DNA from: Candidatus Poriferisocius sp.
Lineage (GTDB): Bacteria > Actinomycetota > Acidimicrobiia > Acidimicrobiales > Bin134
NCBI RefSeq assembly: GCF_965202595.1
Contig: NZ_OZ241836.1
Location: forward strand, 932,202-996,201
Direction: 5' to 3'
Length of the DNA stretch: 64,000 nucleotides
Notes under the pieces: model-generated
The model's input: the letters and a program-made list of their open reading frames with translations, nothing else
The model's database searches: none
Told to the model about the DNA's origin: nothing
Position numbers and translations under genes: made by a program
In this document: one piece after another, positions 4,442 to 53,958 of the stretch
Layout: each line of letters starts with the position of its first letter
Numbering within the stretch: position 1 is the first letter of the stretch

Positions 4442-5986
4442 TCAGCGTTGGCTGTAACAGGCCTCCACGATGGCCGGCTCGGTTACCGCATCCCCCTCCA
4501 GCTCGCCGACAATCCGCCCCTCGCCCAGCACCAGCACCCGGTGGCACACCCCGACCAACTCGGAGAACTCCGAGGATATGAACACCACAGCCTTTCCCTC
4601 GGCGGCCAGCTCCTCCATGATGTCGTAGATCTCCTCCTTGCCGTCCACATCCACCCCGATGGTCGGCTCATCGAAGATCAACACGTCGGCCCCTTGCTCC
4701 AGCCACTTGGCGATCACCACCTTCTGCTGGTTGCCGCCCGAAAGCAGGCGCACGAGCTGGCGGTCGCTGGGGGTGGCGATGCTGAGCCGCCCGATACGGC
4801 TGCCGGCGGCCTGCTTCTCCGAGCGGGAGGAGGGAACCGGTGCTTGACGGCGAATCCGGTGACGATCCAGGGAGGCCAGCGTGATGTTGTTGCGCACGCT
4901 GAAATCCATGATGTTGCCCTGGGTCTTGCGATCCTCCGGCAAGAGCGCCAGACCGGATGACATGGACTTGGATGGATTGTTACCGGCAACCTCGGTGCCG
5001 TGAACCCGCACCGTTCCCCCCTGGCGATGGTCGGCGCCGAACACCGCCCGAACCAACTCGGTGCGCCCGCTGCCCACCAGCCCACCCAAACCGAGGATCT
5101 CCCCCTTGCGCACATCAAAGGAGCAATCATGCACGCCGGTGTCCGCGCTCAGCCGGTGAACCTCCAGCACCACCTCGGTATCGGGCCGCCCCCCCACCTT
5201 CCGGTTCGCTCGCCGCTCTGTTGCGGTTCGGGCGTGCTCGTGGCCGGTGATATGGGCGATGAGAGAGCCCCGATCCAGCGACTCGGTGGGCTCGTCGGCC
5301 ACCAAACGCCCGTTGCGCATCACGATTACCCGCTCGGTCAACTCGAATATCTCCTCCAACCGGTGCGACACGTACACCACGGTTATGCCCTCGTCTCGCA
5401 GCCGCCGCACCACCGTGAACAAGTGCTCTATCTCCTCATCGGTCAGCGACGCGCTGGGTTCGTCCAGTACCAGCAAGCGGGCCTGCTGGGCCAACCCCCG
5501 GGCGATCATCACCAGCCTTTGCTGGGCCACGCTCAGCTCGCCCACCGCCCGGCGGGGATCGATATCCACCTCCAACCGGGCTATGGGCTCCGCAGCCCGG
5601 CTATACAACTCCGCCCAGTCCACCAGCAGGCCGAACTTGCGGGGGTAACCCAGACCCAGCATCACGTTCTCGGCCACCGACAGATCGCCCACGTCTTGAA
5701 GGTCTTGATGGACGAAGGCCAGGCCCGCAACCGTGGCATCGTGCGGGTGGTGCAGATCCAGTGGCGTGCCGTTCAACCGCAGGTGGCCCTCGTTGGCCCG
5801 CTCGGCCCCGGCCATGATCTTGATGAGCGTGCTCTTACCCGCCCCGTTCTTGCCCACCAGACCGATGATCTGGCCGGCCCCCAGCGAGACCGACACATCG
5901 TCCACCGCCAGCACACCGGGGTAGCGTTTGGTGACTCCGCAGATCTCCAGCAGGGGCACGTTGTTCGCCAAAACAGCGGCGGTCAT
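4442..5986 (-). CDS. Sugar ABC transporter ATP-binding protein (duplicated ABC domains, RbsA/MglA-like)
   Basis: Two Walker A motifs (GKNGAGKST, GLVGSGRTE). The start MTAAVLANNVPLLEICGVTKRY is at 5986. The track extension to 6100 reads through the 59-bp repeats in another register. Confidence 0.85.
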   Translation of the reverse strand: MTAAVLANNVPLLEICGVTKRYPGVLAVDDVSVSLGAGQIIGLVGKNGAGKSTLIKIMAGAERANEGHLRLNGTPLDLHHPHDATVAGLAFVHQDLQDVGDLSVAENVMLGLGYPRKFGLLVDWAELYSRAAEPIARLEVDIDPRRAVGELSVAQQRLVMIARGLAQQARLLVLDEPSASLTDEEIEHLFTVVRRLRDEGITVVYVSHRLEEIFELTERVIVMRNGRLVADEPTESLDRGSLIAHITGHEHARTATERRANRKVGGRPDTEVVLEVHRLSADTGVHDCSFDVRKGEILGLGGLVGSGRTELVRAVFGADHRQGGTVRVHGTEVAGNNPSKSMSSGLALLPEDRKTQGNIMDFSVRNNITLASLDRHRIRRQAPVPSSRSEKQAAGSRIGRLSIATPSDRQLVRLLSGGNQQKVVIAKWLEQGADVLIFDEPTIGVDVDGKEEIYDIMEELAAEGKAVVFISSEFSELVGVCHRVLVLGEGRIVGELEGDAVTEPAIVEACYSQR

Positions 5987-6106
5987 CTGGTGACTCCGCA
6001 GATCTCCAGCAGGGGCACGTTGTTCGCCAAAACAGCGGCGGTCATCTGGTGACTCCGCAGATCTCCAGCAGGGGCACGTTGTTCGCCGATGCGGTAGCAA
6101 TCATCT
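5930..6106. repeat. 59-bp tandem repeat (about 3 copies) spanning the permease stop / ATPase start junction; MIRU-like
   Basis: The string ggtgactccgcagatctccagcaggggcacgttgttcgcc recurs starting at 5930, 5989 and 6048. Copies 1-2 are identical and copy 3 diverges at its end. Confidence 0.9.
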
Positions 6107-7132
6107 CCGCTTCGCTCCCAGCGCGGTGAGCAGCATGGCCAGCACCAGGATCGACCCTCGGGAGATGTCCAGGATGTCGCGGTCGTAACCCAGGATGGTC
6201 AGCCCCGACTGCACGGCCTGCAAGAAGATAACCCCGAGCACGGTGCCCGGAATGTTGAAAAGGCCCTTCCGGGATGCCGCCGCCCCCAAGAAGGCGGCCG
6301 CGTAGGCCGATAGCAGCAACGAGATACCCACCCGGGGAATGGAGGAAGCGGTGCGGGCGGTTTGGGAAACTGCGGCCACAACCGCCACGAACCCCACCAC
6401 CATGAAGCCCAATGCCCGCAACGCCTTGACGTTGATACCCGACAGGCGGGCTGCCTCCGGGTTACCCCCGATGGCATACATGTACCGCCCCAGCTCGGTT
6501 CTCGACATCATCAGCCACAAGATGATGGCCAAACCGGCGGCGATCCACACCGGTGAGGTGAACTCCGTCCACGGTTCGGGCTTACCAATACCCAGGTCCC
6601 GATAAAGATCGGGCATGTCAGCCGCACCGGTGATGTTGCGCCCGTCGCTGATCGTGTACTCGATCCCCAGCAGTATCAAGAAGGTGGCCAGGGTGGTGAT
6701 GAACGAGGGCATCTGCATGTAAGACACCAAAAGACCGTTGATCGCCCCGATGCCGAGCCCGAACGCCATCCCGACCAGCACCGCCAGTCCCCAGGGCCAG
6801 TCGTGGTTCACGATCAGCACCACAATGGCGGCTGCTGTGGCCGAGAGCGTGCCGGCTATGGACAGGTCGAAATCGCCCATGGCCAGCACCACGGTCAAAC
6901 CCAGCGAGAGCATGAGCAGTGGAGCGGCCAGGCCGAGCTGGGTGCGCAAGTTGTCCATCTCGAAGAAGCGGCTGTCCAGTACCGAGAAGATCACGATGCA
7001 CGCCACCAGGGTGATCAGCACCCCGTAGGTGGATATGAACATGAGCGGGTCGAAGCGTCTGCGTAAGGCTCCCGAACCGGCAATGTTTGAATCCCGCTGC
7101 GTCGGGACAGTGTTGGTGTCGGCCATTGGCAT
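6101..7132 (-). CDS. Sugar ABC transporter permease (RbsC-like)
   Basis: 343 aa, polytopic and hydrophobic. It sits between the substrate-binding-protein and ATPase genes on the same strand. Confidence 0.8.
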   Translation of the reverse strand: MPMADTNTVPTQRDSNIAGSGALRRRFDPLMFISTYGVLITLVACIVIFSVLDSRFFEMDNLRTQLGLAAPLLMLSLGLTVVLAMGDFDLSIAGTLSATAAAIVVLIVNHDWPWGLAVLVGMAFGLGIGAINGLLVSYMQMPSFITTLATFLILLGIEYTISDGRNITGAADMPDLYRDLGIGKPEPWTEFTSPVWIAAGLAIILWLMMSRTELGRYMYAIGGNPEAARLSGINVKALRALGFMVVGFVAVVAAVSQTARTASSIPRVGISLLLSAYAAAFLGAAASRKGLFNIPGTVLGVIFLQAVQSGLTILGYDRDILDISRGSILVLAMLLTALGAKRR

Positions 7133-7164
7133 CCTCCCCCGTGTTGAAATTAGCCGCTGAACGC

Positions 7165-9886: not shown

Positions 9887-10303
9887 CTACTTCTCTATCA
9901 GCTTCTCAAACAAGAGCGGCGTTATCACTGGTGATTGCTGTTCCAGGCACTCGAGCAGGTCCTTGTCGCCCGTAACGATGTAGTCGGCGGAATTTTCTCG
10001 TGCGAGGGCTACAAGGTAGTCATCGTTAACGTCACGCGTCGTAGGTTCAATAACCTGGGGGTTGGGGACGACATCGGCAAGAACCTGGATTGTCTCGATG
10101 AGACGTTGGGCAATATCTATGTTGACCCACTTGCGCATTCTTGGACGCCGGGTGAGCACATCAGTGATTTCGTTGATCAGCATCGGACATATGACGACCT
10201 CGAAGTGGTTCGATCCGGCAAGCCAGTGCATCACGATCCGCTGCGATGGGCCGGCCTGGATCAAAGCCGATACCCATACATTGGCATCCAACACCACCCG
10301 CAC
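9887..10303 (-). CDS. PIN-domain toxin
   Basis: 138 aa. N-terminal MRVVLDANVWVSA with the conserved Asp, plus a later ...IVTGDKDLL motif. Confidence 0.75.
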   Translation of the reverse strand: MRVVLDANVWVSALIQAGPSQRIVMHWLAGSNHFEVVICPMLINEITDVLTRRPRMRKWVNIDIAQRLIETIQVLADVVPNPQVIEPTTRDVNDDYLVALARENSADYIVTGDKDLLECLEQQSPVITPLLFEKLIEK

Positions 10304-10738: not shown

Positions 10739-11926
10739 TTAGCGGGTGCAGATTACCGAGGAGCCGTGGCCGAACATGCCGTGGTTGATGCACAGGCCCA
10801 CTTTGGCCCCGTTTACCTGGCGGTGGCCGGCCTGGCCCCGGAGTTGCCAAACCAGCTCGCACACCTGGGCGATGGCCTGGGCGGGAACGGCCTCTCCGAA
10901 GGCCCCCAGCCCCCCCGATGGGTTCACGGGGATGCGCCCGCCCAGCGCGGTGTCGCCGGCCCGCAGCAACCGGGCGGCCTCACCCCGACCGCACAGGCCG
11001 ATGTGTTCGTACCAATCCAGCTCGTAGGCCGATGACAGGTCGTACACCTCGGCGAAATCCAGATCCTCGGGCGACACCGAGGCTTCCTCGTAGGCCCGGG
11101 CTGCGATGTTGTCCTTGAACGTCATGGTGTCGTCGCCGCCGGCGGCCCACGAGTCCGACGCCAGGTAGGGCAACTCGATGACGCTGTTGGGGTAGGTGGG
11201 GCTCACGGTGGAGATTCCCGACACCCGCACCGGATCCTCGACCCCCCGGGCCGCGGCCCATTCCAGGCTGGATACCACCAGTGCCGCCCCACCGTCGGAG
11301 GTGGCGCAGATCTCCAGCAGGCGCAGCGGGTCGGCCACCATCGGGGAGTTGGCGATGTCGTCGATGCCGTACTCCTTGGTGTAGCGGGCGTTGGGGTTGA
11401 GCGCCCCGTGGCGGGAGTTCTTCACCTTCACCGCAGCGAAATCCTCGGGGGTGTCGCCGTACAGCTCCATGCGCCGCCGGGCGTACAGGGCGAAGTAGGT
11501 GGGGTTGGTGGCCCCCACCAGATGGAACCGGAGCCAGTCGGGATCATCGTGGCGCTCGCCGGCATTGGGGGCGAAGAACCCCTTGGGGGTGGCCTCGGCC
11601 CCCACCACCAGAGCCACGTCGCAAACCCCGGACAGGATCTGGGCCCGGGCGATGCTCAGGGCGGTGGCCCCCGAGGCGCAAGCCGCATACGAACTGGCCA
11701 ACTGGCAGCCGGTGAACCCCAGGGCGTTGGCGAACGTGGAGGCCGACACGTAGCCGGGATAGCCGCACCGCACGCTGTTGGCCCCGGAGACGAACTGGAT
11801 CTCGTCCCAACCCACCTCGGCATCGGTCAGCGCCTCGCGGGCCGCCTTGACACCGTACTCCACGAAGTTGCGGCCCCACTTGCCCCACGGGTGCATACCC
11901 ACGCCCAAAACGGCGATCTCGTCCAT
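10739..11926 (-). CDS. Thiolase-like (SCP-x / lipid-transfer type) protein
   Basis: Thiolase fold with the active-site region ...SSYAACASGATAL... The MDEIAVLGVGMHPWGKW start overlaps the upstream stop as ATGA. Confidence 0.8.
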   Translation of the reverse strand: MDEIAVLGVGMHPWGKWGRNFVEYGVKAAREALTDAEVGWDEIQFVSGANSVRCGYPGYVSASTFANALGFTGCQLASSYAACASGATALSIARAQILSGVCDVALVVGAEATPKGFFAPNAGERHDDPDWLRFHLVGATNPTYFALYARRRMELYGDTPEDFAAVKVKNSRHGALNPNARYTKEYGIDDIANSPMVADPLRLLEICATSDGGAALVVSSLEWAAARGVEDPVRVSGISTVSPTYPNSVIELPYLASDSWAAGGDDTMTFKDNIAARAYEEASVSPEDLDFAEVYDLSSAYELDWYEHIGLCGRGEAARLLRAGDTALGGRIPVNPSGGLGAFGEAVPAQAIAQVCELVWQLRGQAGHRQVNGAKVGLCINHGMFGHGSSVICTR

Positions 11927-12384: not shown

Positions 12385-12432
12385 ACCGCCAGCTTAGGCC
12401 CGCTGCCTCACGGCGGCCCATCCGGTGCCGGA

Positions 12433-12467
12433 GTTACGTTTTGACGGTGGCCGGGGTTACGTTTTGA
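12433..12467. repeat. 23-bp-period direct repeat GTTACGTTTTGA x2 abutting the cotH-like start codon
   Basis: gttacgttttga occurs at 12433-12444 and 12456-12467. The GTG start is at 12471. Confidence 0.7.
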
Positions 12468-12470
12468 TCC

Positions 12471-14384
12471 GTGCGCCGGCTATCGACCTTTTTGGTGGTG
12501 GCCATGGTGTTGTTCGGCGCTGCCTGCGGTGGCGGGGATGAAGACATCGGCCGATCCCCTGCGGGGACTCCCTCGACTGCGGCCTCCCCCGGCCCGGTCG
12601 CGCCCAGTCCTACCCCAGGAGCCACGAAACCTCCGCAGGAGCCGGCATCGGAGCCGACCGCCACTCCGGCCGCCTCACGGGAAATCGAGGCCGACCCCGA
12701 TCCCAGCGAGGCTTATTTCAACCTGGAGCGTGTGCTCGACATAAGCATCCAGATCGACACCGGGGATTGGGATGTTCTGCGCAACCAGACCCGCACTTTC
12801 CAAGATTTAATTGCCGAAATCGGGGAGTACGAACTTTCCCGGCCGTTCTCCGACATCTATTCCTGGTTCCCGGCCACGGTGACGGTGGACGGCGAGACAC
12901 ACACCGATGTCGGGGTGCGCAAGAAGGGTTTCATCGGATCCCAGAGCAACACCAAACCCGCGCTCAAGCTGCGCTTCGACAAGTACGTGGACGGTCAAAG
13001 CCTGGGCGGGGTCATCGAGAGAATGACCTTGAACAACAGCGTCCAGGACCCCTCCATGCTCAATACCTGCCTCGCCTACCGGGTGTTTACCGCCGCGGGC
13101 AATATCGCCCCGCGCTGCAACTTCGCCACGGTGTCGGTGAACGGCAGCGACCTCGGGCTGTACGTGCAGGTGGAGGAGATCAAGGCCCCGTTTTTGGCCC
13201 GCCACTTCGACAGCACCGGGGGCAACATCTATGAGGGCACGGTCAGCGATTTCACCGAAACCTACCGGGGCACCATCGAGAAGAAGAACAACGAGGATGC
13301 CGGTGACTGGTCGGACATTCAGGCAGTGGTGGAGGCGTTGGAGGATTCCTCTGAGCGAGGGTTGAAAAAGCTGGGCGAGATCGTTGATCTGGACAGGTTC
13401 CTAACCTTTTGGGCCACCGAAGTGCTGGTGGGACATTGGGACGGGTACGCGGGCAACCGCAACAACTACTGGTTCTATCGCGAGCCGCAGGGCCGTTTCG
13501 TGTTCATTCCCTGGGGTGTTGACGGCACCTTCCACCTGGAGGACGACCCCAATCCCTTCGACAACATCTCCAGCCCTCCCCCGTCGGTGCTGGCTCTGTC
13601 GGCCATCCCCAACCGCCTCTACAGCCACCCCGATTGGAGGGCGGCGTATGCCAAGAGGCTGGAGGAAATCCTCGATACCGCCTGGGACGAGGATGAACTC
13701 CTAGCCCTGGTGGACGAGATGGCGGCCATCGTTCAGCTCCATGCCCTGCCTGAGGAAGCCGAAGCCGCCGCTGCCGGCACCGAGCGGGTTCGCAAGTTCA
13801 TCCACGAGCGAAGGGGTGAGATACTCGCCGATCTCGTCCCCTCTCCACCGCACTGGCCGGGGTCGGCACCAGCCCCACCACCCCCCGCCGCCGTGGAGAC
13901 CGTGGAGGTTGCCTTCGAGACCACATGGGGCAGCCACCTCAACCCCGACCCTGTGGGGATGGGATCCATCAGCAGTCTGCTACTGAACGGCTCGGAGGAA
14001 ACCGCCGAGAACGTGGGGGTCTTCTCCGGCTATCCCAGCCCGGAGGAGAAGGCCCTGCTCCCGGACGTGGCCGAAACCGCCGCCATCGTGTTGATGAACT
14101 TCGAGGAGGACGGTTCCACCAGCGGGATGACCCTGGTTGTGGATCTGGCTCTGGTCGAAGCCGGTGCCACGCTCGCCATCGGTTCCGATGCGATCGCGGG
14201 AGGAGTGTGGTACTTGCCGCCCGGCGCTACCTCCCCCGAGTGGTTCTCCCCCTTCGTTGACGGCACGCTGGAGCTTTCCAGGGCGGGCACCGATACGGAG
14301 GATGTGATTGCCGGAAACTTCTCGGGTGTCTTCGGGGATGGCGCGGAGCCGGCCGCCGGTGTCAGGGGACTTCCGAACCGTTGA
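12471..14384 (+). CDS. CotH-family (kinase-like) lipoprotein
   Basis: Signal and lipobox MRRLSTFLVVAMVLFGAACGG. The central region ...GHWDGYAGNRNNYWFYREPQGRFVFIPWGVDGTF... resembles the CotH core. Confidence 0.65.
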   Translation: MRRLSTFLVVAMVLFGAACGGGDEDIGRSPAGTPSTAASPGPVAPSPTPGATKPPQEPASEPTATPAASREIEADPDPSEAYFNLERVLDISIQIDTGDWDVLRNQTRTFQDLIAEIGEYELSRPFSDIYSWFPATVTVDGETHTDVGVRKKGFIGSQSNTKPALKLRFDKYVDGQSLGGVIERMTLNNSVQDPSMLNTCLAYRVFTAAGNIAPRCNFATVSVNGSDLGLYVQVEEIKAPFLARHFDSTGGNIYEGTVSDFTETYRGTIEKKNNEDAGDWSDIQAVVEALEDSSERGLKKLGEIVDLDRFLTFWATEVLVGHWDGYAGNRNNYWFYREPQGRFVFIPWGVDGTFHLEDDPNPFDNISSPPPSVLALSAIPNRLYSHPDWRAAYAKRLEEILDTAWDEDELLALVDEMAAIVQLHALPEEAEAAAAGTERVRKFIHERRGEILADLVPSPPHWPGSAPAPPPPAAVETVEVAFETTWGSHLNPDPVGMGSISSLLLNGSEETAENVGVFSGYPSPEEKALLPDVAETAAIVLMNFEEDGSTSGMTLVVDLALVEAGATLAIGSDAIAGGVWYLPPGATSPEWFSPFVDGTLELSRAGTDTEDVIAGNFSGVFGDGAEPAAGVRGLPNR

Positions 14385-14430
14385 CAACCCCACACCGGGA
14401 GCTGCCAACCGGCAGTAGGCGTGTTTTTCC
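14371..14430 (+). repeat. Boundary repeat F, copy 1; overlaps the cotH-like stop codon
   Basis: ttccgaaccgttgacaaccccacaccgggagc is identical to 19804-19835. The next ~28 bp are roughly 75 percent similar. Confidence 0.85.
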
Positions 14431-14454
14431 CAATTCGTCAGGCGCTCCGCAACT

Positions 14455-16980
14455 CTATGTCTCTATCACCAAGGGCACATCGGCTTGGTTTGCTATCGGG
14501 GTCCAAAGGTCTACCTCAATCTCAGGTGATTCGACAGACACGATGAGTGCGTAGCGAACACCATCCTTGCTCCGGTCGCGTGACTTGCGCTCTTTCCACC
14601 AACCTGTCACGGGATAGACAGCGATTGCTCCGCGTGCGGCAAGCTCAACTGCGGGCCCCTTCCAGTGATCAACATGCAATGACCCGCGCACCCGTTCTTG
14701 GGGACCAAGCAACCATTGACCGCTGTCCCTCTCCGAAGTTGGGCGTTCTTCGCCCTCGGCAAGAGCGAGCTTGTTGATTCGCTTGCGAAAGTCATCGGTG
14801 GTTTCGGTAGGCTTCCGCACGTCGAATCGGAGACCGTGGGAGGCGTACCGGAACCGTCGTGTCCAGCCACGCCGAGCTGGATTAGGCTCAATGAAGTAAG
14901 ATAAAACGACTCGCATCTCCACTATTTCTTCACCGAGACCACTTAATACATCAGTGGGCCATGGGAGACTGTGCAAGTGCATCTCGCGCATCCTGCCGTC
15001 GCGATAGGGGTGAATTAGGTTCTGGCTAATTAGCGTGACCGAATCGTTGGCAGACCGTAGCGCTCGGCTTATGTCGGGCACGCCCCATCCGTAGCGACGT
15101 AGCTTCGCTACGGTACTTTGTCGATTGGCTCCGTTGAAGTGGCCTTTCATGGTCTCGGTCCAGCGGGCGGAATGAACAATCAGACCCCGAATAGTCTCTG
15201 GCCACAGGTGCGGGTACTTGGTCGACAGTTGTTGTGCGAGATGAGCTGCCTGAGCGGTGGCTGGGCTCGTACCAGCAGCCGTGGTGAGGAGCCTACCCCC
15301 AAGCACTGGCGAGCGTGTAGTGAGGAGTTGGAGGCCGGGAGGGGTATCTATCGACTGGTTCGACGGAGAGATCGCTGCGTTTCCACCCTCGAGAACTATT
15401 TCGGGTTTGTGAGGCCACTGTGTGCGAAAGCTGACTGAGGTCCGGCTGAAGGGAGACAGCTCACCTATTTGCGCAAGTGGTTTCCAACCCTTGAAGTCCT
15501 CGTGGTGAATGTGAGATAGATTGGTGTAAGCACCGACAGTCAAGGCATTCCATGCCTGGCCGGGATCTTCGACCGGTTCAATATCGCTTCGCTCAAGGTG
15601 GTTCCTGTCGTAGGGGCCGCGTACATTACCGGACGCAACGATGAACAAGCGTTGCGCATTACTAGCGGGTTTGTCGATATAGATCAGGTTGCCTTCAGAA
15701 GCAAAGACTGCGCGGCCAGCTGCAAGAGCGTCGATGGTGGATGACCACGCCGACGGCTCTCCAAGATGTGAAGGGTACATAGCTGTGTTGGTGGCTGTGA
15801 CTGCGAGAACAAATGTCCGATGCCGCTGAGGTTGGTTGATCTCAACAATCGATATTGCCTGCGCAGTTATGGCACCGTAAAACTGGGGGTCATTCTGTCC
15901 TGTGTTGGGCAGGATTTTTACCGACTCAATCCAGCCCTGAACATTGACCGGACCACCAACCATAAGGCACTTGGCTAGATCCCCATAAACCACCAGTCCG
16001 GCCATCTCGGTGCCATGTCCTCGACGATCATCGCTGCCCCAATGAGGCTGGACGCTATGAGCATCATTTTTCGAAATCGCAACACGGAGCAATGGATGGC
16101 CTATCGCAATTCCCGTGTCCAAAAGACATGTCACAGCCGCGTTATCAGGTGGCACAACAAGCCTCCCTGCCAACTCATCAACGAACTCACTCTGCTCAGA
16201 AGCGGGCAGTTCAGCCAGAAACTGGGTAGCTTCAACCGGATGGCGAAGCTCAGCAAGGTCATCAAGAAGGTCGAGTGCTGTTCCGAGCTGAGCTGGAGTG
16301 GCTCGCACGAGCATGACTATGCGATCCTCAAACGCAAGTTGTTGATGTTTTATCTCCATACCAGTGATCTCAGCGAAACTCAAAAGTCGTTGATCAGCTC
16401 TCTCACGGTGACGCAGCCACAACTCCCACCAAACTGCCACATCGCTATCAGGGAACTCGTCTGGGTTTTCGGTCCACAAAGCACGAAGCGTTGCCAGTCG
16501 CACCCCTGCGATCCTCTCGACCAGATTTTTGTTCTTTGGGTTACCGCCCGTGGTATCTTCAGAAATGTATTCCTCAAAGCGCTTTATGAATTTACCTACC
16601 CAGTCATCAGGAATAAAAACAGTAGCAAGCTGAGTGGGTTTGCCGTCAATATCTCTTGTCGTTACAGCGCACAGTTCAGGGTGAACGCTCCCCTGTTGCG
16701 GTTCGAGCGAGGTCAGTGCTAACTCGAAACCAGGTTGTGACTCGAACTCCATGTAGATGCCATCGAGAGCACCTTCAACCCGAACTGCTCCATGGTCATC
16801 CTTGCGCTTTTGAGATTCTCCGACGGCAATGCCAAACTGTTTGAGGAGTTTGTCACCGTGCTGCACCCGGTCGGACGGTGATGGCGGTGCCGTTAGCCAA
16901 GGAGCGGCTGCAAACGGTTTGTACTCATCGATATGGGGATCCCGCGTCATTATCACATGGGATCTGTTCCGTTCTGCCAC
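14455..16980 (-). CDS. S8 (subtilisin-like) serine peptidase, IetS-like
   Basis: Catalytic triad contexts LLDTGIAIGHP (Asp), GHGTEMAG (His) and AAGTSPATA (Ser). It starts 9 nt downstream of the AAA+ gene. Confidence 0.85.
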   Translation of the reverse strand: MAERNRSHVIMTRDPHIDEYKPFAAAPWLTAPPSPSDRVQHGDKLLKQFGIAVGESQKRKDDHGAVRVEGALDGIYMEFESQPGFELALTSLEPQQGSVHPELCAVTTRDIDGKPTQLATVFIPDDWVGKFIKRFEEYISEDTTGGNPKNKNLVERIAGVRLATLRALWTENPDEFPDSDVAVWWELWLRHRERADQRLLSFAEITGMEIKHQQLAFEDRIVMLVRATPAQLGTALDLLDDLAELRHPVEATQFLAELPASEQSEFVDELAGRLVVPPDNAAVTCLLDTGIAIGHPLLRVAISKNDAHSVQPHWGSDDRRGHGTEMAGLVVYGDLAKCLMVGGPVNVQGWIESVKILPNTGQNDPQFYGAITAQAISIVEINQPQRHRTFVLAVTATNTAMYPSHLGEPSAWSSTIDALAAGRAVFASEGNLIYIDKPASNAQRLFIVASGNVRGPYDRNHLERSDIEPVEDPGQAWNALTVGAYTNLSHIHHEDFKGWKPLAQIGELSPFSRTSVSFRTQWPHKPEIVLEGGNAAISPSNQSIDTPPGLQLLTTRSPVLGGRLLTTAAGTSPATAQAAHLAQQLSTKYPHLWPETIRGLIVHSARWTETMKGHFNGANRQSTVAKLRRYGWGVPDISRALRSANDSVTLISQNLIHPYRDGRMREMHLHSLPWPTDVLSGLGEEIVEMRVVLSYFIEPNPARRGWTRRFRYASHGLRFDVRKPTETTDDFRKRINKLALAEGEERPTSERDSGQWLLGPQERVRGSLHVDHWKGPAVELAARGAIAVYPVTGWWKERKSRDRSKDGVRYALIVSVESPEIEVDLWTPIANQADVPLVIET

Positions 16981-16989
16981 CTTCCGGCC

Positions 16990-17970: not shown

Positions 17971-18126
17971 CCTCTACACCTCGCTCAGTCCTTCAACCTA
18001 TGTTAGATGAAGATCATGGCCTGAGCCATGGAAAGGTTGACCATCCTGCCAGCCGCCCCAACGGTATCTGCCGTCGCAGCGTGGACGGTGGGGGCAGGGC
18101 ATCTGTGGACCGTGACGAGCTCCTCA

Positions 18127-40476: not shown

Positions 40477-40499
40477 GCTGGAGCTGGCACACTTTGTTT

Positions 40500-42831: not shown

Positions 42832-42932
42832 AGCCAGGCACCCTGGGGGCGTGCCTGGCCGCCGGATGAAGCACCCTGGGGGCGCGCCTGGCCGCTGGAT
42901 GAAGCACCCTGGGGGCGCGCCTGGCCGCCGAG
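42801..42932. repeat. ~33-bp tandem repeat x4 duplicating the gene's 3' end and stop
   Basis: caccctgggggcgcgcctggccgctggatgaag is found at 42801, 42839, 42872 and 42905 (last copy partial). The unit encodes TLGARLAAG*. Confidence 0.9.
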
Positions 42933-42939
42933 GGGAACC

Positions 42940-43980
42940 TCAGTAGCCCCGGTCGGGGTCCACCACGTTCAGCAACGGTTCGCCCGCCAGGTAGCGTTCC
43001 AGGTTGTCGCAGAACAGTTCCAGCAGGGCCTCGTTGTATCCCTCCCGGGCGGTGGAGCAGTGGGGCGACAGGTACATGTTGGGGGCATCCCACAGCGGGC
43101 TGCTCGCCGGCAGAGGCTCCTCGCGGGTGACATCCAGCACGGCAGCCCCCAGGTGGCCCGATTCCAGGGCTTCCACCAGGGCGGTTTCGTCGATGATGGA
43201 TCCCCGCCCCACGTTCGCAACCACCGCCCCGGGTTTGAGCCGGGCCAGGCGTTCGGTGTCGAACAGGTCGATGGTCTCGGGGGTCTGGGGGGCGCACAGC
43301 ACCACCGCATCGCAGCGGGCCAGCATCTCATCCAGCCCATCGGGGCCGTAGATCTCGTCGGCATCGGGGTCGGTGTCGCCCGGCCGGGCCGAGCGGCGGT
43401 TGGCCAGCACCGTCATCTCGAAGGCCCGGGCCCGCCGGGCCACGTCCCGGCCGATGGCTCCCAGCCCGACTATGCCGATGCTCCGGCCCTTCACCAGCAG
43501 GCCCTGGTGCATCCGCCAATCGCGGTCGCGTTGCTGGCGCTCCAGCACCCGTATGTCCTTCCACACCTCCAGCAGCCGGCCGATCACGAACTCGGCGATA
43601 GGAACGGAAGCCACCCCGGCGGCGTTGGTCAACATGATGTTCTTGGCGTGCAGCTCCTTGGGTTCAAGATGACCGATCCCCGCTCCGATTGCCTGCACCC
43701 AGCGCAGCCGGGTTGCCCAATCCCTTATGCCGGGGGGCAGGTCCAGGGCCATCAGCACATCGGCACCGGCGATCACCTTTCTTTGTGCCTCCGTCAGCAC
43801 CGGTGCGGTGGCCAGCAGATCCTCGGTGACCCGGCCCTTGGCCTTGGCATCTCGCAATCCGTGGGGATCCAGGTAGCCGATATTGTGGAACGCAACGGTG
43901 CCGAAGCGGCGCTCCAGACGCTCCAGTTCCGACTGGTCCATGTTCGGGGGAAACATCAACACCGCGCAGAGATCACTCAC
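42940..43980 (-). CDS. D-isomer-specific 2-hydroxyacid dehydrogenase (NAD-binding)
   Basis: ...GIVGLGAIGRDVARRA... and ...NVGRGSIIDE... Confidence 0.85.
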   Translation of the reverse strand: MSDLCAVLMFPPNMDQSELERLERRFGTVAFHNIGYLDPHGLRDAKAKGRVTEDLLATAPVLTEAQRKVIAGADVLMALDLPPGIRDWATRLRWVQAIGAGIGHLEPKELHAKNIMLTNAAGVASVPIAEFVIGRLLEVWKDIRVLERQQRDRDWRMHQGLLVKGRSIGIVGLGAIGRDVARRARAFEMTVLANRRSARPGDTDPDADEIYGPDGLDEMLARCDAVVLCAPQTPETIDLFDTERLARLKPGAVVANVGRGSIIDETALVEALESGHLGAAVLDVTREEPLPASSPLWDAPNMYLSPHCSTAREGYNEALLELFCDNLERYLAGEPLLNVVDPDRGY

Positions 43981-44151
43981 CGCTAAAACCTACTTCCCGA
44001 ACTGCGGGGCCGGATTCGAGGGACAAACCTTCCGGATCACTCACCGCTAGAACCCTAGTACTCCCGGCTCGTGACCGCGATCAACCATGGGGGAGGCGGG
44101 GGCCCGCAACTGTTTCGGCCTAGTACTCCTGGCCAATAACCGCGGTCAACC
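43971..44151. repeat. Degenerate ~63-bp tandem repeat (about 3 copies) beginning on the gene's start codon
   Basis: gatcactcaccgcta is found at 43971 and 44034. ctagtactcc.ggc...accgcg.tcaacca is found at 44055 and 44119. Confidence 0.75.
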
Positions 44152-44187
44152 AAGGTTCTGGTGGCACGGAGGTTGTAGGTTCGTTAC

Positions 44188-45078
44188 ATGGAAACTTTCG
44201 AGGGCAAAGCGGCGGTTATCACGGGCGGAGCCAGTGGGATGGGCCGGGCCATGGCCGAGCGGTTCGGCGCGGCCGGTGCCCGCATCATGATTGCTGATGT
44301 GGAGGGCCCCGCCATGGATGCTGCCGTGGCCGAGTTGAACCAGGCCGGCATCGACGCGGTGGGCGTGCTCACCGACGTGAGTTCGGAGCGCGACATGGAC
44401 GAGCTGGCCACCGCCGCCCTGTCCCGGTTCGGGCAGGTGAACGTGGTTTGCAACAACGCCGGGGTGGGCGGCGGCGGATTGATGGACGAGCTCACCACCG
44501 CCGACTGGGAGTGGATTCTCGGGGTGAACCTGTGGGGGGTGATTCACGGCATCCGGGTGTTCCTGCCCCACCTGCTGGAGCATGGTGACGGCCATATCAT
44601 CAACACCGGTTCGGTTGCCGGTCACACGTCGTATCCCAACATCGGCCCCTACAACGCCTCCAAGCACGCCGTGGTGACCATTTCCGAGACCCTTTACAGC
44701 GAGCTTCAGGATCGGGGGTCGCCGGTGGGGGTGTCGGTTCTGTGCCCGGGCCTGGTGAAGACCAACATCATCAACTCCGAGCGGAACCGCCCCGAAACTC
44801 TGCGCTCACCGATCATTCCCCCCGACCCCACCGCCGCCGACGAGGAGCGGATCCAGATGATGCTGGCCATTTACGAGGACGCGGTGAAGCCGCCCGAGGT
44901 GGCCGAACTGGTGTACCGGGCGGTGCTCAACCAGCAGTTCTACATCTGGACCGACTACGTGTACGCCGAGGCCATCATGCAGCGCCACGAGGACATCCGA
45001 TTGGGCCGCAACCCCAGCCGCCGCCACCAGCTCATCGAGGAGGACCAAACCGTCAAGGGCCCGCCTCAAGGGGCCTGA
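44188..45078 (+). CDS. SDR family oxidoreductase
   Basis: AAVITGGASGMGRA and YNASKHAV. Confidence 0.85.
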   Translation: METFEGKAAVITGGASGMGRAMAERFGAAGARIMIADVEGPAMDAAVAELNQAGIDAVGVLTDVSSERDMDELATAALSRFGQVNVVCNNAGVGGGGLMDELTTADWEWILGVNLWGVIHGIRVFLPHLLEHGDGHIINTGSVAGHTSYPNIGPYNASKHAVVTISETLYSELQDRGSPVGVSVLCPGLVKTNIINSERNRPETLRSPIIPPDPTAADEERIQMMLAIYEDAVKPPEVAELVYRAVLNQQFYIWTDYVYAEAIMQRHEDIRLGRNPSRRHQLIEEDQTVKGPPQGA

Positions 45079-49022: not shown

Positions 49023-49137
49023 CGCCGGCCAGCTTAATCCTTTGAGCTGCACCCTTCGTTTAGTTCCTTGTTGGGTGTTTGATCATTGCCGTTGTGGTGC
49101 TGGCCACGTCGGCTGCGCTCTTCGTCTCGATGCGGGG

Positions 49138-49920
49138 TCAAGTCACCACGTCGGCAGCGCCGCCGTCGATGCGCAGGTGGGCTCCGTTGATCTGGCGAGC
49201 CCGGTCGCTGCACACGAAGGTCACCAGCTCCCCCACATCGGAAACGGTGGCTATGTGGCCGGTGAGCGTGGGCATCTGCACGCTGGTCACGTGGCGTTCG
49301 ATGTCGCCCCAATCGGTGGAGCGACCCTCCCGCTCGGCCTGGCTGCTCCACATCTCCACCAGCTCGGGGGTGGCGATGACTCCGGGACTGACGCAGTTCA
49401 CCGTCACCCCGGTGCCGGCCAGTTCCCGGGCCAGGCTCACGGTCATGGCCGGCAGAGCACCCTTGGCCGCGTAGTAACCCGGGATGCGGTCACCGGGTCG
49501 GGTGGCTCCAATGGTGGATACCAGCACGATCCGCCCCCAACCCCGATCCCGCATGGCCGGAACCAGGAGGCGGGTCATCCGCACCGCAGTCAAAACATTG
49601 CGGTTGTAGGCATCCATCCAAACCTCGGCACCGTCATCTCCCCAGTTACCGCCCACCGCAACTCCGTAGTTGTTCACCAAGATGTCAACCGGGCCGCACT
49701 GTTTGGCCACCCGTTCCGCTCCCTCATCGGTGCAGATGTCGCCCCACACCGCACGGGCGGGAGCCCCCAACTCCTCGATCAGCCCGCCGGCTTGGCCTGG
49801 CTCGAAACCGTGAACCACAACCTCTGCACCTTCGGCGGCCAGAACCCGGGCTATCCCGCTGCCCGTCCCCCGGTAGCTGCCCGTCACCAGCGCAACCCGT
49901 CCCACCAGATTCAGATCCAT
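49138..49920 (-). CDS. SDR family oxidoreductase
   Basis: [24 protein letters not shown] and YYAAKGAL. The track ORF extends to 50106 through an in-frame 60-bp repeat array. Confidence 0.85.
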
Positions 49921-49967: not shown

Positions 49968-50120
49968 GCCACAAGCGGCCAGGCGGGCCCATCTTCGGAG
50001 GTTCTTTGGATGGGTTGCGGTGTCGATACCACAAACGGCCAGGTGGGCCCATCTTCAGAGGTTCTTTGGATGGGTTGCGGTGTCGATGCCACAAGCGGCC
50101 AGGCACCAGGTGGGCCCAAC
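49968..50120. repeat. 60-bp tandem repeat (about 2.5 copies) in the divergent SDR/aroC intergenic region
   Basis: The unit gccacaagcggccaggcgggcccatcttcggaggttctttggatgggttgcggtgtcgat is found at 49968 and 50028, with a partial copy at 50088. Confidence 0.9.
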
Positions 50121-50142
50121 CCTCGTACTACCCTGGTTGGCG

Positions 50143-51246
50143 ATGAGCAGTTCGACGGGAAGGTTGTTTCGGGTCACAACCTTTGGTGAATCGCACGGCG
50201 GGGGCATAGGCGTTGTGGTGGACGGATGCCCACCCCGTCTGGAGCTGGACGCGGCAATGATCCAGCACGACCTGGACCGCCGCCGCCCCGGTCAGAGCCG
50301 CCTCACCACGCAACGAGATGAAGCCGACCGGGTGGAGATCCTCTCCGGGGTATTCGAGGGCCGGACACTGGGCTCACCCATAGCCCTTCTGGTAAGAAAC
50401 TCCGATGCCAACCCCGGTGCCTACGAGCATCTCAAGGACGTTTACCGACCCTCGCACGCCGACTACACCACCGAAGCCAAGTACGGCATCCGCAACTGGC
50501 AAGGGGGAGGCCGGGCCAGCGCCCGGGAGACCATAGGCCGGGTTGCCGCCGGAGCCATTGCCCGCCAACTCCTGCGCGCCGCAGCCGGCATCGAGGTTCT
50601 GGGGTGGGTTCACCAGATCGGTCGGGTCACCGCCCCCGTGGACTCCACCAGCGTTACTTACGACCAGGTGGAAGCCCACCCCACTCGCTGCCCCTCCCCC
50701 GACCATGCCCAGGTCATGGCCGATGCGATAGAGGCGGCAAGGCGTGACGGCGACTCATTGGGAGGAGTGGTGCGCACCATCGCCCGGGGAGTGCCACCCG
50801 GCCTCGGGGCACCGGTGTTCGACAAGTTGGAAGCCGACCTGGCCAAAGCCGCCCTCTCGCTGCCGGCGGCCAAGGGGTTCGAGATCGGTTCGGGGTTTGC
50901 CGCTGCGGCCATGACCGGCCGGGAGCACAACGACCCCTTCACTCCCGGCCCCGATTCCCGGCCCCGAACCGCCTCCAATCATTCCGGCGGGGTGCAGGGC
51001 GGTATCAGCAACGGCGACGACATAGTGATCCAGGTTGCGTTCAAGCCCACCGCCACCATCGCCTCGGCCCAACGAACCGTGGACCGCCGAAACAACCCTG
51101 TCACCCTGTCGGCAAGAGGCCGCCACGACCCCTGCGTTCTTCCCCGCGCCGTGCCCATGGTGGAGGCGCAGATGTTGCTGGTGCTGGCCGACCACTGGCT
51201 GCGCCAGCAAGCCGTTGACGTGCTCGGATGTGAAGCCCAGAGCTGA
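50143..51246 (+). CDS. aroC: Chorismate synthase
   Basis: [31 protein letters not shown]... The upstream half of track ORF 49042-51246 is antisense to the SDR gene and is not part of aroC. Confidence 0.9.
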
Positions 51247-51256
51247 TGTTTCTCCA

Positions 51257-52087
51257 ATGACCGGCCAGTCGGATAGCACAAAGGCGTGCACTCCCGAGGA
51301 TCAGCGCCTGCTGCTCGAGGTGGACAACCGTGTCGCGGTGGTAAGGCTGAACCGGCCCGAGGCCCGCAACGCCATGACCAGGCGAATGCGCAACGACTTG
51401 TGTGCGATGCTGAGAGCCGCCGATACCGATGACAAGGTGAGCGTCGTCATCCTGACCGGCACCGACCCGGCCTTTACCGGTGGGGTGGATCTGCGCGAAG
51501 TCGCGGCCCAGGAGCAGGCGGTAATTGGCACCTCCAAGCGCCAAGCCCAGGATCCGGCGGTAATTGGTGACGGCAAGCGCCAAGCTGAGGATCCGGCCCA
51601 GGCGTGCCGGGATACCTCCAAGCCGTTGATTTGCGCGGTGAACGGCACTTGCGTCACGGGGGGCCTGGAGATCGCCCTTAGTTGTGACTTCATCGTGGCC
51701 TCCGATCGGGCCCGGTTCGCCGACACCCACGCCAAGATCGGGGTTATTGCCGCCTGGGGCATGACGGCCCTGCTGCCACGGGCGGTGGGCAAGCGCATGG
51801 CCAAGGAGATGACCGCCACCGCCCGCTTTGTGGAAGCGGACGAGGCCCTGCGCATCGGCCTGGTCAACCACGTGGTGCCCCACTACCAACTGCTGGCCCA
51901 CGCCCGAGCGCTGGCCGGTCGGGTCGCCGAGGTGGCAACCCCGGCGACGGCGACCACCATGAGCCTCTACGACGATGGTGACGGCAAGAGCTTCGCCGAG
52001 TCCAGGGCCATGGAGGAGGTGGCCATGCGCAACTGGAAAGTGGACACCGAGGACATGCAGCGCCGCGGCCTCGGCAGGGGTAACTGA
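51257..52087 (+). CDS. Enoyl-CoA hydratase/isomerase family with an internal 13-aa tandem duplication
   Basis: ...VVRLNRPEARNAM...LTGTDPAFTGGVDLREV... ATG at 51257. Confidence 0.8.
   Translation: MTGQSDSTKACTPEDQRLLLEVDNRVAVVRLNRPEARNAMTRRMRNDLCAMLRAADTDDKVSVVILTGTDPAFTGGVDLREVAAQEQAVIGTSKRQAQDPAVIGDGKRQAEDPAQACRDTSKPLICAVNGTCVTGGLEIALSCDFIVASDRARFADTHAKIGVIAAWGMTALLPRAVGKRMAKEMTATARFVEADEALRIGLVNHVVPHYQLLAHARALAGRVAEVATPATATTMSLYDDGDGKSFAESRAMEEVAMRNWKVDTEDMQRRGLGRGN
51518..51595. repeat. 39-bp in-frame tandem duplication inside the crotonase gene
   Basis: The units at 51518-51556 and 51557-51595 encode AVIGTSKRQAQDP / AVIGDGKRQAEDP. Confidence 0.85.
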
Positions 52088-52860: not shown

Positions 52861-52913
52861 ATCCTGATCCCCGCGATCAGGGCAGTTGGCCGAACCGGAT
52901 CAATTTTCTCCGA

Positions 52914-53873
52914 TCAGGGCACCAGCACGATCTTTCCGAAGAACGCCGAACTTTCCATCAGCCGGTGGGCTTGGGCGATCTCCTCCAGGGGGAAAGTGGC
53001 GGCGATCACCGGGGTAACCCGGCCCTGGTGGATCATGGCCAGCAGCTCTCGCATGGTGGCTGCGATCCGCTGATTGTCGGGACGTCCCACCCCCATCAGG
53101 CTTATGCCCTTCACGAACAGTTGGCCCAGGTGCAACTCTGCCATGGGCCCGGCGGTGACCCCGCAGGTCACGAACCGACCCTCGGGGGCCAGCGAACGCA
53201 TGGCCGCGGCGAACACCGGGGTTCCCACGTGGTCGAGCACCACATCCACCCCCCGGCCATCGGTGGCATCCCGCACTGTGGAAACGATGTCGCCGTCGTA
53301 GTGATCGACCGCCAGCTCCGCGCCCAGTTCCATCGCCCGGGCCCGCTTGCTCGCAGTACCCGCGGTGGCGATGACCCGGCATCCCGTTGCCCGGGCGATC
53401 TGCACCCCGAAGCTGCCCACGCCCGACCCGGCCGCCATCACCAGCACCGTCTCCCCCGGCTGGATCCGGGCTTTCTGGATGAGGGCCTGGTGGGCGGAGC
53501 GACCGGCGGTGGGAGTGGCTCCCCCAGCCTCGAAGGTGATTCCTCCGGGCAGCGGGAACACCAGCTCCGCGGGGGCTAGGGCCAGGGTGGCGTGGGCCCG
53601 CTCGCCCGAGGCCACCACCCGATTTCCGGGGGCCACCGTTGTCACCCCGGGGCCGACCGATTGCACTACTCCGGCGATGTCCCTCCCGCCCACATGCCGA
53701 GGCCATCGCAGCCTCATCCCGTGGGATCCCTCCCGCCAATACACATCCACCCGGTCCATCGAGGTGGCCCTCACCCCGATGAGCACCTCACCTGGGCCAG
53801 GCTCGGGGTCGGCCAGCTCCCCCACCCGCAGCACTTCCAGCCCCCCCTGAGCCTCGTGATAGGCGGCCCGCAT
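52914..53873 (-). CDS. Zinc-type alcohol dehydrogenase / quinone oxidoreductase (MDR family)
   Basis: ...GPGEVLIGVRATSMDRVD... and ...VMAAGSGVGSFGVQIA... Confidence 0.85.
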   Translation of the reverse strand: MRAAYHEAQGGLEVLRVGELADPEPGPGEVLIGVRATSMDRVDVYWREGSHGMRLRWPRHVGGRDIAGVVQSVGPGVTTVAPGNRVVASGERAHATLALAPAELVFPLPGGITFEAGGATPTAGRSAHQALIQKARIQPGETVLVMAAGSGVGSFGVQIARATGCRVIATAGTASKRARAMELGAELAVDHYDGDIVSTVRDATDGRGVDVVLDHVGTPVFAAAMRSLAPEGRFVTCGVTAGPMAELHLGQLFVKGISLMGVGRPDNQRIAATMRELLAMIHQGRVTPVIAATFPLEEIAQAHRLMESSAFFGKIVLVP

Positions 53874-53958
53874 GATCAGCGGACCCGCACATGGGGTGGT
53901 TCGGGCAATGGGGGTCTCCGGGCGAACGTGTCCAGATCAGCGGACCCGCACATGGGGT
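53874..53958. repeat. 61-bp-period duplication copying the 3' end of the upstream gene onto the next gene's start
   Basis: gatcagcggacccgcacatggggt occurs at 53874-53897 (abutting the CAT start at 53871-53873) and at 53935-53958 (containing the stop at 53937-53939). Confidence 0.85.

Follow-up and report, generated by a model that had tools for sequence, protein, structure and literature searches.

The stretch of DNA analysed here, a 64,000-nt window of a 'Candidatus Poriferisocius' chromosome, carries a real, lineage-specific, MIRU-like variant of tandem repeat, whose units are copied from gene ends at their own locus and do not form a dispersed family. The units, 10-65 nt in size, are made of the terminal codons of the gene next to them. 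Tandem repeats were called with TRF, and two spaced pairs (43971/44034 and 53874/53935) are described separately as direct repeats. Many gene starts were taken from our own codon-usage caller, with key starts checked by ortholog alignment. The host, a member of the Acidimicrobiia, is a sponge symbiont. The arrays and related copies in window coordinates are as follows.

5929-6104, minus strand: three head-to-tail 59-nt units, whose source is the first 20 codons of a sugar ABC-transporter ATPase gene (TRF: 5929-6087, 59 nt x 2.7, 100% identical)
12423-12467, no strand assigned: 23 nt x 2.0, divergent region between a ChsH2-like OB-fold gene (minus strand) and a CotH gene (TRF)
32454-32589, minus strand: 33 nt x 4.1, upstream side of a short-chain dehydrogenase start (TRF)
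37523-37609, plus strand: expanded junction between an enoyl-CoA hydratase stop and an amidohydrolase start, containing a 10 nt x 4.5 array at 37523-37567 (TRF)
38401-38502, plus strand: 34 nt x 3.0, amidohydrolase 3' end (TRF)
40369-40475, no strand assigned: units of 49 and 35 nt, divergent promoter region of coaE and an acyl-CoA dehydrogenase (TRF)
42800-42930, plus strand: units of 38/33 nt x 3.8, 3' end of a second acyl-CoA dehydrogenase, ACAD2 (TRF)
43971-44155, minus strand: direct repeats with spacers between them, divergent region at a 2-hydroxyacid dehydrogenase start, two of them (43971/44034) about 20 nt each with a period of 63
49104-49134, minus strand: diverged copy of a dehydrogenase 3' end (49146-49173), between that gene and the next one
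49969-50104, no strand assigned: 60 nt x 2.3, divergent promoter region of a dehydrogenase and aroC (TRF)
51506-51597, plus strand: eleventh array, 39 nt x 2.4, in frame inside an enoyl-CoA hydratase gene
53874-53958, minus strand: spaced 24-nt direct repeat x 2, period 61, junction of a SnoaL-like gene and a quinone-oxidoreductase gene

Nine arrays with a period of at least 10 and a score of at least 76 were observed, compared to none in 50 Markov-simulated windows, and repeats were recovered at all ten coordinates listed by a first-pass annotation of this DNA. That annotation had estimated about one per 4-5 kb of backbone, which was correct at a spacing of about 4.5 kb, and had seen none inside the low-GC island, where we likewise found no internal array, the one at 12423 lying at its left edge only. 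It had also placed the arrays beyond ordinary microsatellites, and their frequency and concentration at gene junctions are indeed far too high for such. Its statement that all of them are anchored on start or stop codons stood for 7 of 10 arrays, which re-copy or abut a true terminal codon in ortholog-checked gene models (5929, 32454, 37523, 38401, 42800, 43971 and 53874), but not securely for the other three. These lie in divergent promoter regions, where the supposed start codons are unreal (40369, 49969) or uncertain (12423).

The array at 5929 lies at an expanded same-strand junction. It consists of copies A (6104-6046), B (6045-5987) and C (from 5986 onward), and copy C is the true start of the 514-aa ATPase protein, since the ORF from ATG 5986 is identical to database proteins, one of them NCBI-named, and 514-aa orthologs were also found. 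The permease stop (6103-6101) and the ATG of copy A overlap as ATGA, and copies A and B are 20-codon mini-ORFs, the TGA of each overlapping the following ATG. In congeners L085 and L086 this junction is a bare ATGA overlap with no additional copy. The sister species has one copy of 62 nt with the same right breakpoint as in the window, which, strongly diverged as it is, is still an open 21-codon ORF with an ATGA overlap at each end. There is mosaic structure at 5929, with 18 diverged nt next to 41 identical nt; a trace for the source of the 18 nt found none.

Other gene starts and ends carry copies too. The 32454 array directly adjoins the short-chain dehydrogenase ATG (32455-32453), and each unit re-copies the region bearing the Shine-Dalgarno (SD) sequence, with GAAGAA replacing the SD GAAGGA in the three distal copies. 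The SDR domain begins at residue 69 of the long ORF there (Pfam), and the sister ortholog, of 250 aa, bears small arrays of its own at this position. At 37523 the array re-copies GCGCAGCTAA, including the stop TAA (37532-37534), and is followed by an older, diverged gene-end copy forming a mini-ORF (37571/37577-37609), which ends as TAA-AC-ATG at the true amidohydrolase start, 37612; this junction is of the stop-NN-start type in 19 of 22 congeners. The 38401 unit comprises the last 10 amidohydrolase codons, TGA and one base; TGATG is generated at unit junctions, and a 22-codon mini-ORF (38433-38501) closes at the last TGA, at the native 15 nt before the next ATG (38517). The 53874 repeat (53874-53897 and 53935-53958) holds the last 6 SnoaL-like codons, TGA and TC, its proximal copy adjoining the quinone-oxidoreductase ATG (53873-53871). 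The two copies are separated by a 37-nt spacer unrelated to the surrounding sequence, for which a trace found no source; the gap at this junction is 2 nt in congener L084 and 1 nt in the sister. The copy at 49104-49134 is an old, decayed duplication of the dehydrogenase 3' end.

At the convergent ACAD2 end, the 42800 unit is the final 29 nt of the gene plus TGA and one base, with 5 nt of filler (GCCAG) at the first unit junction, and the array occupies the gap up to the convergent 2-hydroxyacid dehydrogenase stop (42940-42942). In most congeners the convergent stops at this 3' end overlap and there is an extra gene of about 300 aa, and the sister's array here, a different one of 43 nt, is likewise anchored on the ACAD2 stop codon. 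The segment repeated at 43971 and 44034 includes both the leaderless promoter box and the GTG (43980-43978) at which the 2-hydroxyacid dehydrogenase starts, the TAGGGT box and the GTG having been fixed by congener alignment; a second repeat pair of this region lies at about 44057 and 44122. Codon anchoring is absent from 40369 and 49969 in the window and from 26868 and 43222 in the sister. Ortholog alignments put the true start of the acyl-CoA dehydrogenase at 40500, ruling out ATG 40380, and that of aroC at 50143, ruling out the ATGs at 50011 and 50071, and the facing starts are 40356 (coaE) and about 49920 (dehydrogenase), both on the minus strand. Both arrays thus lie within divergent promoter regions, away from start codons, and at these sites the sister has unrelated arrays of 47 nt x 2.3 and 67 nt x 2.6, respectively. 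The coaE region is short in congeners, about 25 nt in the shortest; a trace for the source of 26 nt in the 40369 array found none. The 12423 array is promoter-proximal, with no secure tie to a start codon, as the CotH start beside it is uncertain (GTG 12471 or ATG 12504). It was also considered as an attachment-site duplication of the island (12.4-31.7 kb), a defence island, and rejected, as a search for direct repeats flanking the island found none. Inside the enoyl-CoA hydratase gene, the duplication at 51506-51597 adds 12 residues in a variable loop, according to a protein alignment with the sister and L084.

The burst of arrays is lineage-specific and confined to one small clade. Strong arrays numbered 19 in the 120 kb examined in all from the window and the sister genome (about 1.6 per 10 kb), against 2 in 381 kb from 17 congener long-read chromosomes, an approximately 30-fold higher density (P=2e-10). 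The median junction gap was 70 nt in the window and 116 nt in the sister compared to 33 nt in congeners, and gene-edge copies were present in 6 of 17 and 6 of 29 gaps, respectively, against 3 of 118. Congener junctions at the matching sites are compact, with an ATGA overlap or stop-NN-start. At four places, namely coaE/ACAD, dehydrogenase/aroC, the ACAD2 end and the SDR start, both species carry arrays at the same junction with different units. Copies differ in age, from perfect to decayed; several are diverged (76-97%), and certain ones are common to the sister in decayed form. The only other contig of the species found by exact-protein look-up, L001, is identical at three arrays, 38401 among them, and no within-species change in copy number was seen at the three arrays of this sole second sample. 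JGI metagenomes were also scanned, with a 28-nt flank that the window and the sister have in common, and gave no match.

The arrays have clearly been filtered by selection. Only 4 of the 19 strong arrays lie inside genes where 13.8 were expected, a value reached in 0 of 5000 placements, and all four have periods that are multiples of 3, against 12 of 15 outside genes that are not. Every same-strand expansion (9/9) forms a chain of mini-ORFs in which the stop overlaps the next start (ATGA) or lies 0-2 nt away from it, and the stop of the final mini-ORF stands at the native distance from the real downstream start; at two window junctions, 36 and 28 nt stand before a single mini-ORF. Units carrying a start had the required length modulo 3 in every case, which at 1 in 3 each has a chance of about (1/3)^7. 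The first-pass annotation had compared the arrays to MIRUs, aptly, since the same-strand expansions are chains of small ORFs oriented as the flanking genes. It had further held that the pattern points to a specific mechanism, but a mechanism that recognises codons is not required: purifying selection on random local duplications accounts for the location of the arrays, as seen in their depletion and uniform frame inside genes, and also for the frame rule, because start-carrying units are all of a length that places the pseudo-ORF stop at the next start.

We believe that local short tandem duplication combined with purifying selection, giving a MIRU-like coupling relay in a lineage burst, is the best explanation and probably the right one. 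Tandem duplications of 10-65 nt would be born locally from gene ends and promoter regions, at an unusually high rate in the ancestor lineage of the window genome and the sister species, and their copy number would later rise and fall in the manner of minisatellites. Purifying selection would remove out-of-frame intragenic duplications, and the survivors would be intergenic or span a gene end, leaving one intact copy for each flanking gene. The tight ancestral same-strand junctions (ATGA, stop-NN-start) suggest translational coupling, and surviving duplications would rebuild the stop/start geometry at each unit junction, such that the inserted DNA could be read as a relay of mini-ORFs handing terminating ribosomes to the real downstream start. 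We infer from this geometry that the mini-ORF chains maintain translational coupling. The mutational step was presumably ordinary template switching or slippage, not one aware of codons.

The positions of breakpoints were nevertheless not fully as this selection model predicts. Of the 14 arrays at termini, 7-9 had a unit boundary no more than 2 nt from the edge of a start or stop codon, against 22% predicted by a viability-filtered simulation (P about 0.001-0.02, for a post hoc statistic on 14 events). Either the selection model may be not strict enough, or there may be a bias in the breakpoints, and a transcription- or translation-linked one is possible. Boundaries stand 0-2 nt off codons at 38401 (+1), 42800 (+1), 5929 (-1), 32454 (0) and 53874 (0), and exactly at codons for the 18-nt and 43-nt units of the sister (0 each). 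Most unit junctions have 0-2 nt of microhomology, and one has the 5 nt filler, a picture unlike that of classical slippage between short direct repeats. Together with the different units that the two species anchored on one ACAD2 stop codon, this would fit breakpoints set by expression, with template switching or R-loop-primed re-copying at sites of stop release or start loading producing anchored births. We consider this unlikely, as 3 of 10 arrays in the window and about six in the sister are intergenic and away from any codon, the boundaries of three large, perfect arrays in the sister stand 12-46 nt away from codons, and in-frame intragenic arrays are also commoner in the lineage, indicating that duplication rose generally. 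That duplications were born with breakpoints set by translation itself, by re-copying starts and stops where ribosomes terminate and initiate, perhaps via R-loops or an uncoupled RNA polymerase beyond the stop codon, is quite unlikely; if true, minisatellites would arise preferentially at start and stop codons as hotspots of mutation, with MIRU-type elements as long-term products of such a process. A literature search for codon-anchored tandem duplications in bacteria returned mainly papers on mitochondrial genomes, and one for Poriferisocius only unrelated coral work.

It is improbable that the arrays are kept as useful contingency or rheostat loci, which would adjust promoter spacing, or the translational coupling of neighbouring genes, through a variable number of copies. 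The recurrence of different units at the same junctions in both species is what such loci would show, and several perfect multi-copy arrays imply a recent change in copy number. However, this recurrence is equally expected where only such sites tolerate insertions, the genes concerned encode ordinary enzymes of housekeeping and catabolism, and the arrays of the only second sample are invariant. Insertion of dispersed mobile repeats (MIRU, MITE or REP) or insertion-sequence footprints is largely refuted and very improbable, despite the general resemblance to MIRUs (PMC4473831, PMC3184786) and an 11-nt motif, CCGACCCGAAC, common to two 35-nt sister units. The units match the last or first codons of the neighbouring gene, seven sampled segments, five of them variant or spacer sequence and two of them sister units, matched only themselves by BLAST in 1.5 Mb, with no cross-matches between loci, the window as a whole has no match in Rfam at gathering thresholds, and periods of 10-65 nt with nothing between the copies do not fit target-site duplications. 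An artefact of long-read metagenome assembly, for which nothing specific speaks beyond the metagenome-assembled origin of the chromosome, is hardly credible: the independent metagenome contig carries the three arrays base for base, several copies are diverged and some are shared with the sister in decayed form, arrays are 30 times scarcer in congener chromosomes that were assembled in a like manner, and the arrays are far shorter than HiFi reads.

The local duplications proposed here bear on a wider question, as the origin of MIRU-like repeats, with small ORFs overlapping their neighbours, has been puzzling since 1997. This lineage shows a MIRU architecture arising from local gene ends, with empty ancestral sites kept in many sister species, and random local duplication passed through a translational-coupling filter is a testable model. 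Two genomes with a 30-fold excess over at least 17 congeners also offer a natural contrast for finding the driving change in repair or replication. On the practical side, junction arrays swell the space between genes, and gene callers are misled by the spurious start codons that they bring.

Among known systems, coupled gene junctions with ATGA, TGATG or stop-NN-start overlaps represent the ancestral state of the junctions studied here, and their geometry is repeated in every duplicated unit; the difference is that the junction itself has been multiplied, turning one coupling point into a relay of two to four. Locus-specific VNTR or minisatellite loci, including the ETR/QUB-type loci of M. tuberculosis, are similar in their head-to-tail local copies, mostly intergenic or in frame within genes, in copy numbers that differ between related genomes, and in the single-copy or compact state found in congeners. 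The arrays here differ from them in their density, which is reached in one small clade only, in units built systematically from gene termini, and in the conserved stop/start relay. Phase-variable simple-sequence contingency loci, where surface or restriction genes have 1-9 nt units in their promoters or frames, were rejected on account of periods of 10-65 nt and metabolic neighbours. Insertion-sequence target-site duplications are about 2-14 nt, so that periods here are mostly too long for such a footprint, and the copies abut and number up to 4.5. MITE and REP elements, which come in many dispersed copies and have terminal inverted repeats or a palindromic stem, were rejected as well, with no dispersed copies of the sampled segments and no Rfam family. 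The closest likeness is to MIRUs, which, according to PMC4473831 and PMC3184786, drawing on Supply et al. 1997, are tandem intergenic units between same-strand genes and, according to PMC3184786, a dispersed family whose units at about 40-50 loci share sequence. Both are tandem units of tens of bp lying intergenically between same-strand genes of an actinobacterium, with empty and filled sites between related genomes, and nine junctions here have mini-ORF chains with ATGA overlaps or 0-2 nt to the next start. Units of 10-65 nt are in some cases shorter than the MIRU range of about 40-100 bp for units inside operons. MIRUs lack dyad symmetry and occur in Mycobacterium genomes; the host here is a sponge symbiont of the Acidimicrobiia. 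Above all, unlike MIRUs, the arrays of this lineage copy the end of their own neighbouring gene, and the loci, as judged from the sampled segments, share no consensus.

The first-pass annotation had described ten short tandem duplications, and Tandem Repeats Finder, by which repeats in the window were detected, showed repeats at all ten coordinates, eight of them true head-to-tail arrays and two spaced direct repeats.

Repeats in the window, arrays named by left coordinate
5929-6087, array, 59 nt x 2.7, 100% identical
12423-12467, array, 23 nt x 2.0
32454-32589, array, 33 nt x 4.1
37523-37567, array, 10 nt x 4.5
38401-38502, array, 34 nt x 3.0
40369-40475, array, 49- and 35-nt units
42800-42930, array, 38- and 33-nt units, x 3.8
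49969-50104, array, 60 nt x 2.3
43971 and 44034, spaced direct repeat, ~20 nt
53874 and 53935, spaced direct repeat, 24 nt

An eleventh array found by the same program is intragenic. The described repeats are real. Nine arrays in the window had a period of at least 10 and a score of at least 76; a second-order Markov model was used to simulate 50 windows, and none of them contained such an array. Since L001, a contig of the same organism from an independent metagenome, matches the window base for base over arrays 37523, 38401 and 40369, and since copies within several arrays have diverged, an assembly artefact was ruled out.

The gene map of the GC-rich backbone was drawn from codon-position GC, Pfam and orthologs, and several gene starts were corrected by alignment of orthologous junctions. 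This placed the ABC ATPase start at 5986, the short-chain dehydrogenase start at 32455, the 2-hydroxyacid dehydrogenase start at GTG 43980, preceded by a conserved TAGGGT box, and the aroC start at 50143. The ATPase product of 514 aa has identical database proteins (one of them named by NCBI), and all its orthologs are equal in length. For the acyl-CoA dehydrogenase, every species aligned has the start at the position of 40500, and the repeated ATG at 40380 was rejected on this alignment. With these models, the earlier claim that every array begins or ends on a start or stop codon held for seven of the ten (5929, 32454, 37523, 38401, 42800, 43971 and 53874), where true terminal codons are either duplicated or immediately adjacent to the repeat, while 12423, 40369 and 49969 lie in divergent promoter regions.

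Conserved TANNNT-like boxes were observed 7-8 nt upstream of the starts of coaE, the 40500 dehydrogenase, aroC and the 2-hydroxyacid dehydrogenase (window 40340-40500, 43960-44190 and 50105-50145, and orthologous loci), which suggests leaderless or very short-leader transcripts. The promoter arrays lie immediately 5′ of these boxes. In front of the short-chain dehydrogenase ATG (window 32456-32649), the 33-nt repeats are in frame and the ORF is open to GTG 32649, so that a 64-residue N-terminal extension of TRDANPQKNNP repeats is formally possible for this protein.

A genome scan assigned the window to 'Candidatus Poriferisocius', a member of the Acidimicrobiia associated with sponges. Syntenic loci were available from ~30 related species, among them the close sister OZ220474.1 (88% nucleotide identity), of which 56 kb stitched from L082, L002 and L083 was compared. 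The corresponding junctions in the congeners are compact: the permease gene and the ATPase gene share an ATGA overlap, the hydratase/amidohydrolase junction reads stop-NN-start in 19 of 22 species, the SnoaL to oxidoreductase gap is 2 nt, and the stops of the convergent pair at the end of ACAD2, the second acyl-CoA dehydrogenase gene, overlap. Median junction gaps were 33 nt (congeners), 70 nt (window) and 116 nt (sister). We counted 7 strong arrays (period 10-100, score at least 100) for the window, 12 for the sister, and only 2 for the 17 congener long-read chromosomes, which together contributed 381 kb; the difference is 30-fold (P=2e-10). Among gaps of at least 40 nt, statistically supported copies of an adjacent gene edge were found in 6/17 for the window, 6/29 for the sister and 3/118 for the congeners. 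Perfect junction arrays in the sister are even larger than those of the window.

Arrays in the sister
L082 18229-18394 and 19479-19673
L083 7714-7886 and 9838-9941
L002 5463-5554, 11261-11385 and 12507-12629
Units: 41 nt x 4, 65 x 3, 67 x 2.6, 36 x 2.9, 35 x 2.6, 35 x 3.6 and 43 x 3

Window and sister arrays frequently occupy the same junction with different units; for several sister arrays these units are unrelated to those of the window. Older diverged copies are common to both genomes at the permease/ATPase and hydratase/amidohydrolase junctions. Judged from these sequences, the duplication process predates the split of the two species and has gone on after it. Gene-end duplication is not exclusive to the two array-rich genomes and is far rarer in the others: congeners L003 and L004 (~11210-11235) and L069 (~3075-3110) have sporadic small duplications re-copying the last codons and stop, such as two copies of CGGCAAGTAG following the first acyl-CoA dehydrogenase and two of AGCTGA following the hydratase. 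L074 ('Candidatus Poriferisocius aerobius', 947-1080) has an array of 2.8 perfect copies of a 48-nt unit. When window 42832-42939 was compared with L002 12512-13605 and most congeners, a minus-strand gene of ~300 aa was seen between ACAD2 and the 2-hydroxyacid dehydrogenase in most congeners; it is absent from L008 and from the window, where array 42800 occupies the deletion site.

The lower-GC segment at 12.4-31.7 kb is absent from the sister, in which the OB-fold gene adjoins the dehydrogenase. It is an insertion relative to that genome and carries a CotH-domain gene and a defence island.

Genes of the lower-GC segment
12471-14384, CotH-domain protein
14455-16980, subtilase
16990-17970, AAA ATPase paired with the subtilase
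18250-19521, DUF4143 ATPase
20201-22903, N6/N4 DNA methylase
24895-25986, ResIII helicase paired with the methylase
26046-27779, CBASS ThiF/E2-like
27776-28783, CBASS SMODS cyclase
28780-29943, CBASS SAVED+HNH effector

Direct repeats flanking the segment (window 12400-31700) were looked for and none was found. Elsewhere in the window, a PIN-domain (toxin-like) gene (9887-10303, minus strand) stands by itself, flanked by the genes for P450 and thiolase, and 55101-60431 (minus strand) encodes a 1776-aa protein of fibronectin type III repeats, whose composition is very strongly skewed between the strands (GC skew of -0.39 over 58-60 kb). Eukaryote-like repeat proteins of this kind are common in sponge symbionts.

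Array placement carries a clear mark of selection. Of the 19 strong arrays, only 4 fall within called genes, versus 13.8 by random placement, and none of 5000 placements was that low. The period of each of these four is a multiple of three, and the window's intragenic array lengthens a variable loop by 12 residues; outside genes, the period is not divisible by three in 12 of 15. We walked every expanded same-strand junction (n=9) from the stop codon of the first gene up to the second gene, and at all nine the inserted DNA forms a chain of mini-ORFs, in which each stop overlaps the next start (ATGA) or precedes it by 0-2 nt, and the spacing between the last stop and the real start is the native one. 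Two window junctions have 36 and 28 nt ahead of a single mini-ORF.

Examples of expanded same-strand junctions
Window permease to ATPase, two 20-codon ORFs, ATGA overlaps throughout
Sister OB-fold gene to thiolase, 41 nt x 4, three 14-codon ORFs
Sister thiolase to P450, 65 nt x 3
Sister GcvP to hydratase, 35 nt, repeated TGA-CC-ATG
Sister hydratase to amidohydrolase, TAG/GTG...TAG/ATG...TAG-TC-GTG

For start-carrying units the stop/start outcome requires one length class modulo 3, which was satisfied every time (roughly (1/3)^7), and the diverged copy at the sister's permease junction still reads as an open ORF of 21 codons, bounded on each side by ATGA. Tight same-strand junctions are probably translationally coupled.

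It is possible that the duplications are born by a codon-anchored mutational mechanism, as the first-pass annotation proposed. Unit ends lie 1 nt past the stop in 38401 and 42800 and on the stop in two sister units, of 18 and 43 nt; the 5929 unit starts 1 nt ahead of ATG, and 32454 and 53874 abut ATG. Of 14 terminus arrays, 7 (firm) to 9 had a boundary no more than 2 nt from a codon edge, compared to 22% of random duplications of the observed lengths simulated in congener sequence and counted only if genes stayed intact and a terminus was touched; this comparison (P ~0.02 to 0.001) is post hoc and from a small sample. However, the boundaries of three large perfect arrays in the sister are 12-46 nt away from codons, promoter arrays take no fixed position relative to codons, and in-frame coding arrays are likewise elevated in the window/sister lineage.

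The unit junctions themselves are nearly devoid of microhomology, one carries a filler of 5 nt, and the copies of 53874 are separated by a 37-nt spacer. Array 5929 is a mosaic (window 5987-6104): of the copies of the ATPase 5′ end, the outermost departs from the inner two at ~10 of its first 18 nt and is identical to them over the next 41 nt. This outer copy (MIATAS) is nearer to the ortholog consensus (MTATAP) than the inner copies, for whose version a source was looked for and not found.

The simplest account of the arrays would be a lineage-specific increase in short local duplications, followed by ordinary minisatellite expansion and decay, under a strong viability filter. The filter would require an intact copy of each flanking gene and, at tight junctions, the stop/start relay.

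The arrays are a lineage-specific form of a known repeat type. No match was obtained from Rfam, nor at other loci by BLAST of sampled unit and spacer segments. Mycobacterial interspersed repetitive units (MIRUs), to which the first-pass annotation had likened the arrays, are described in a passage of PMC4473831 as small ORFs that share the orientation of the adjacent ORFs and overlap these at their ends, and in a passage of PMC3184786 as dispersed, with ~40-50 copies per genome. Membership of the MIRU family was rejected, since each unit here copies its own gene end, and the BLAST result agrees. The likeness stands for how the arrays work, as their mini-ORF chains match the published small-ORF overlap and orientation.
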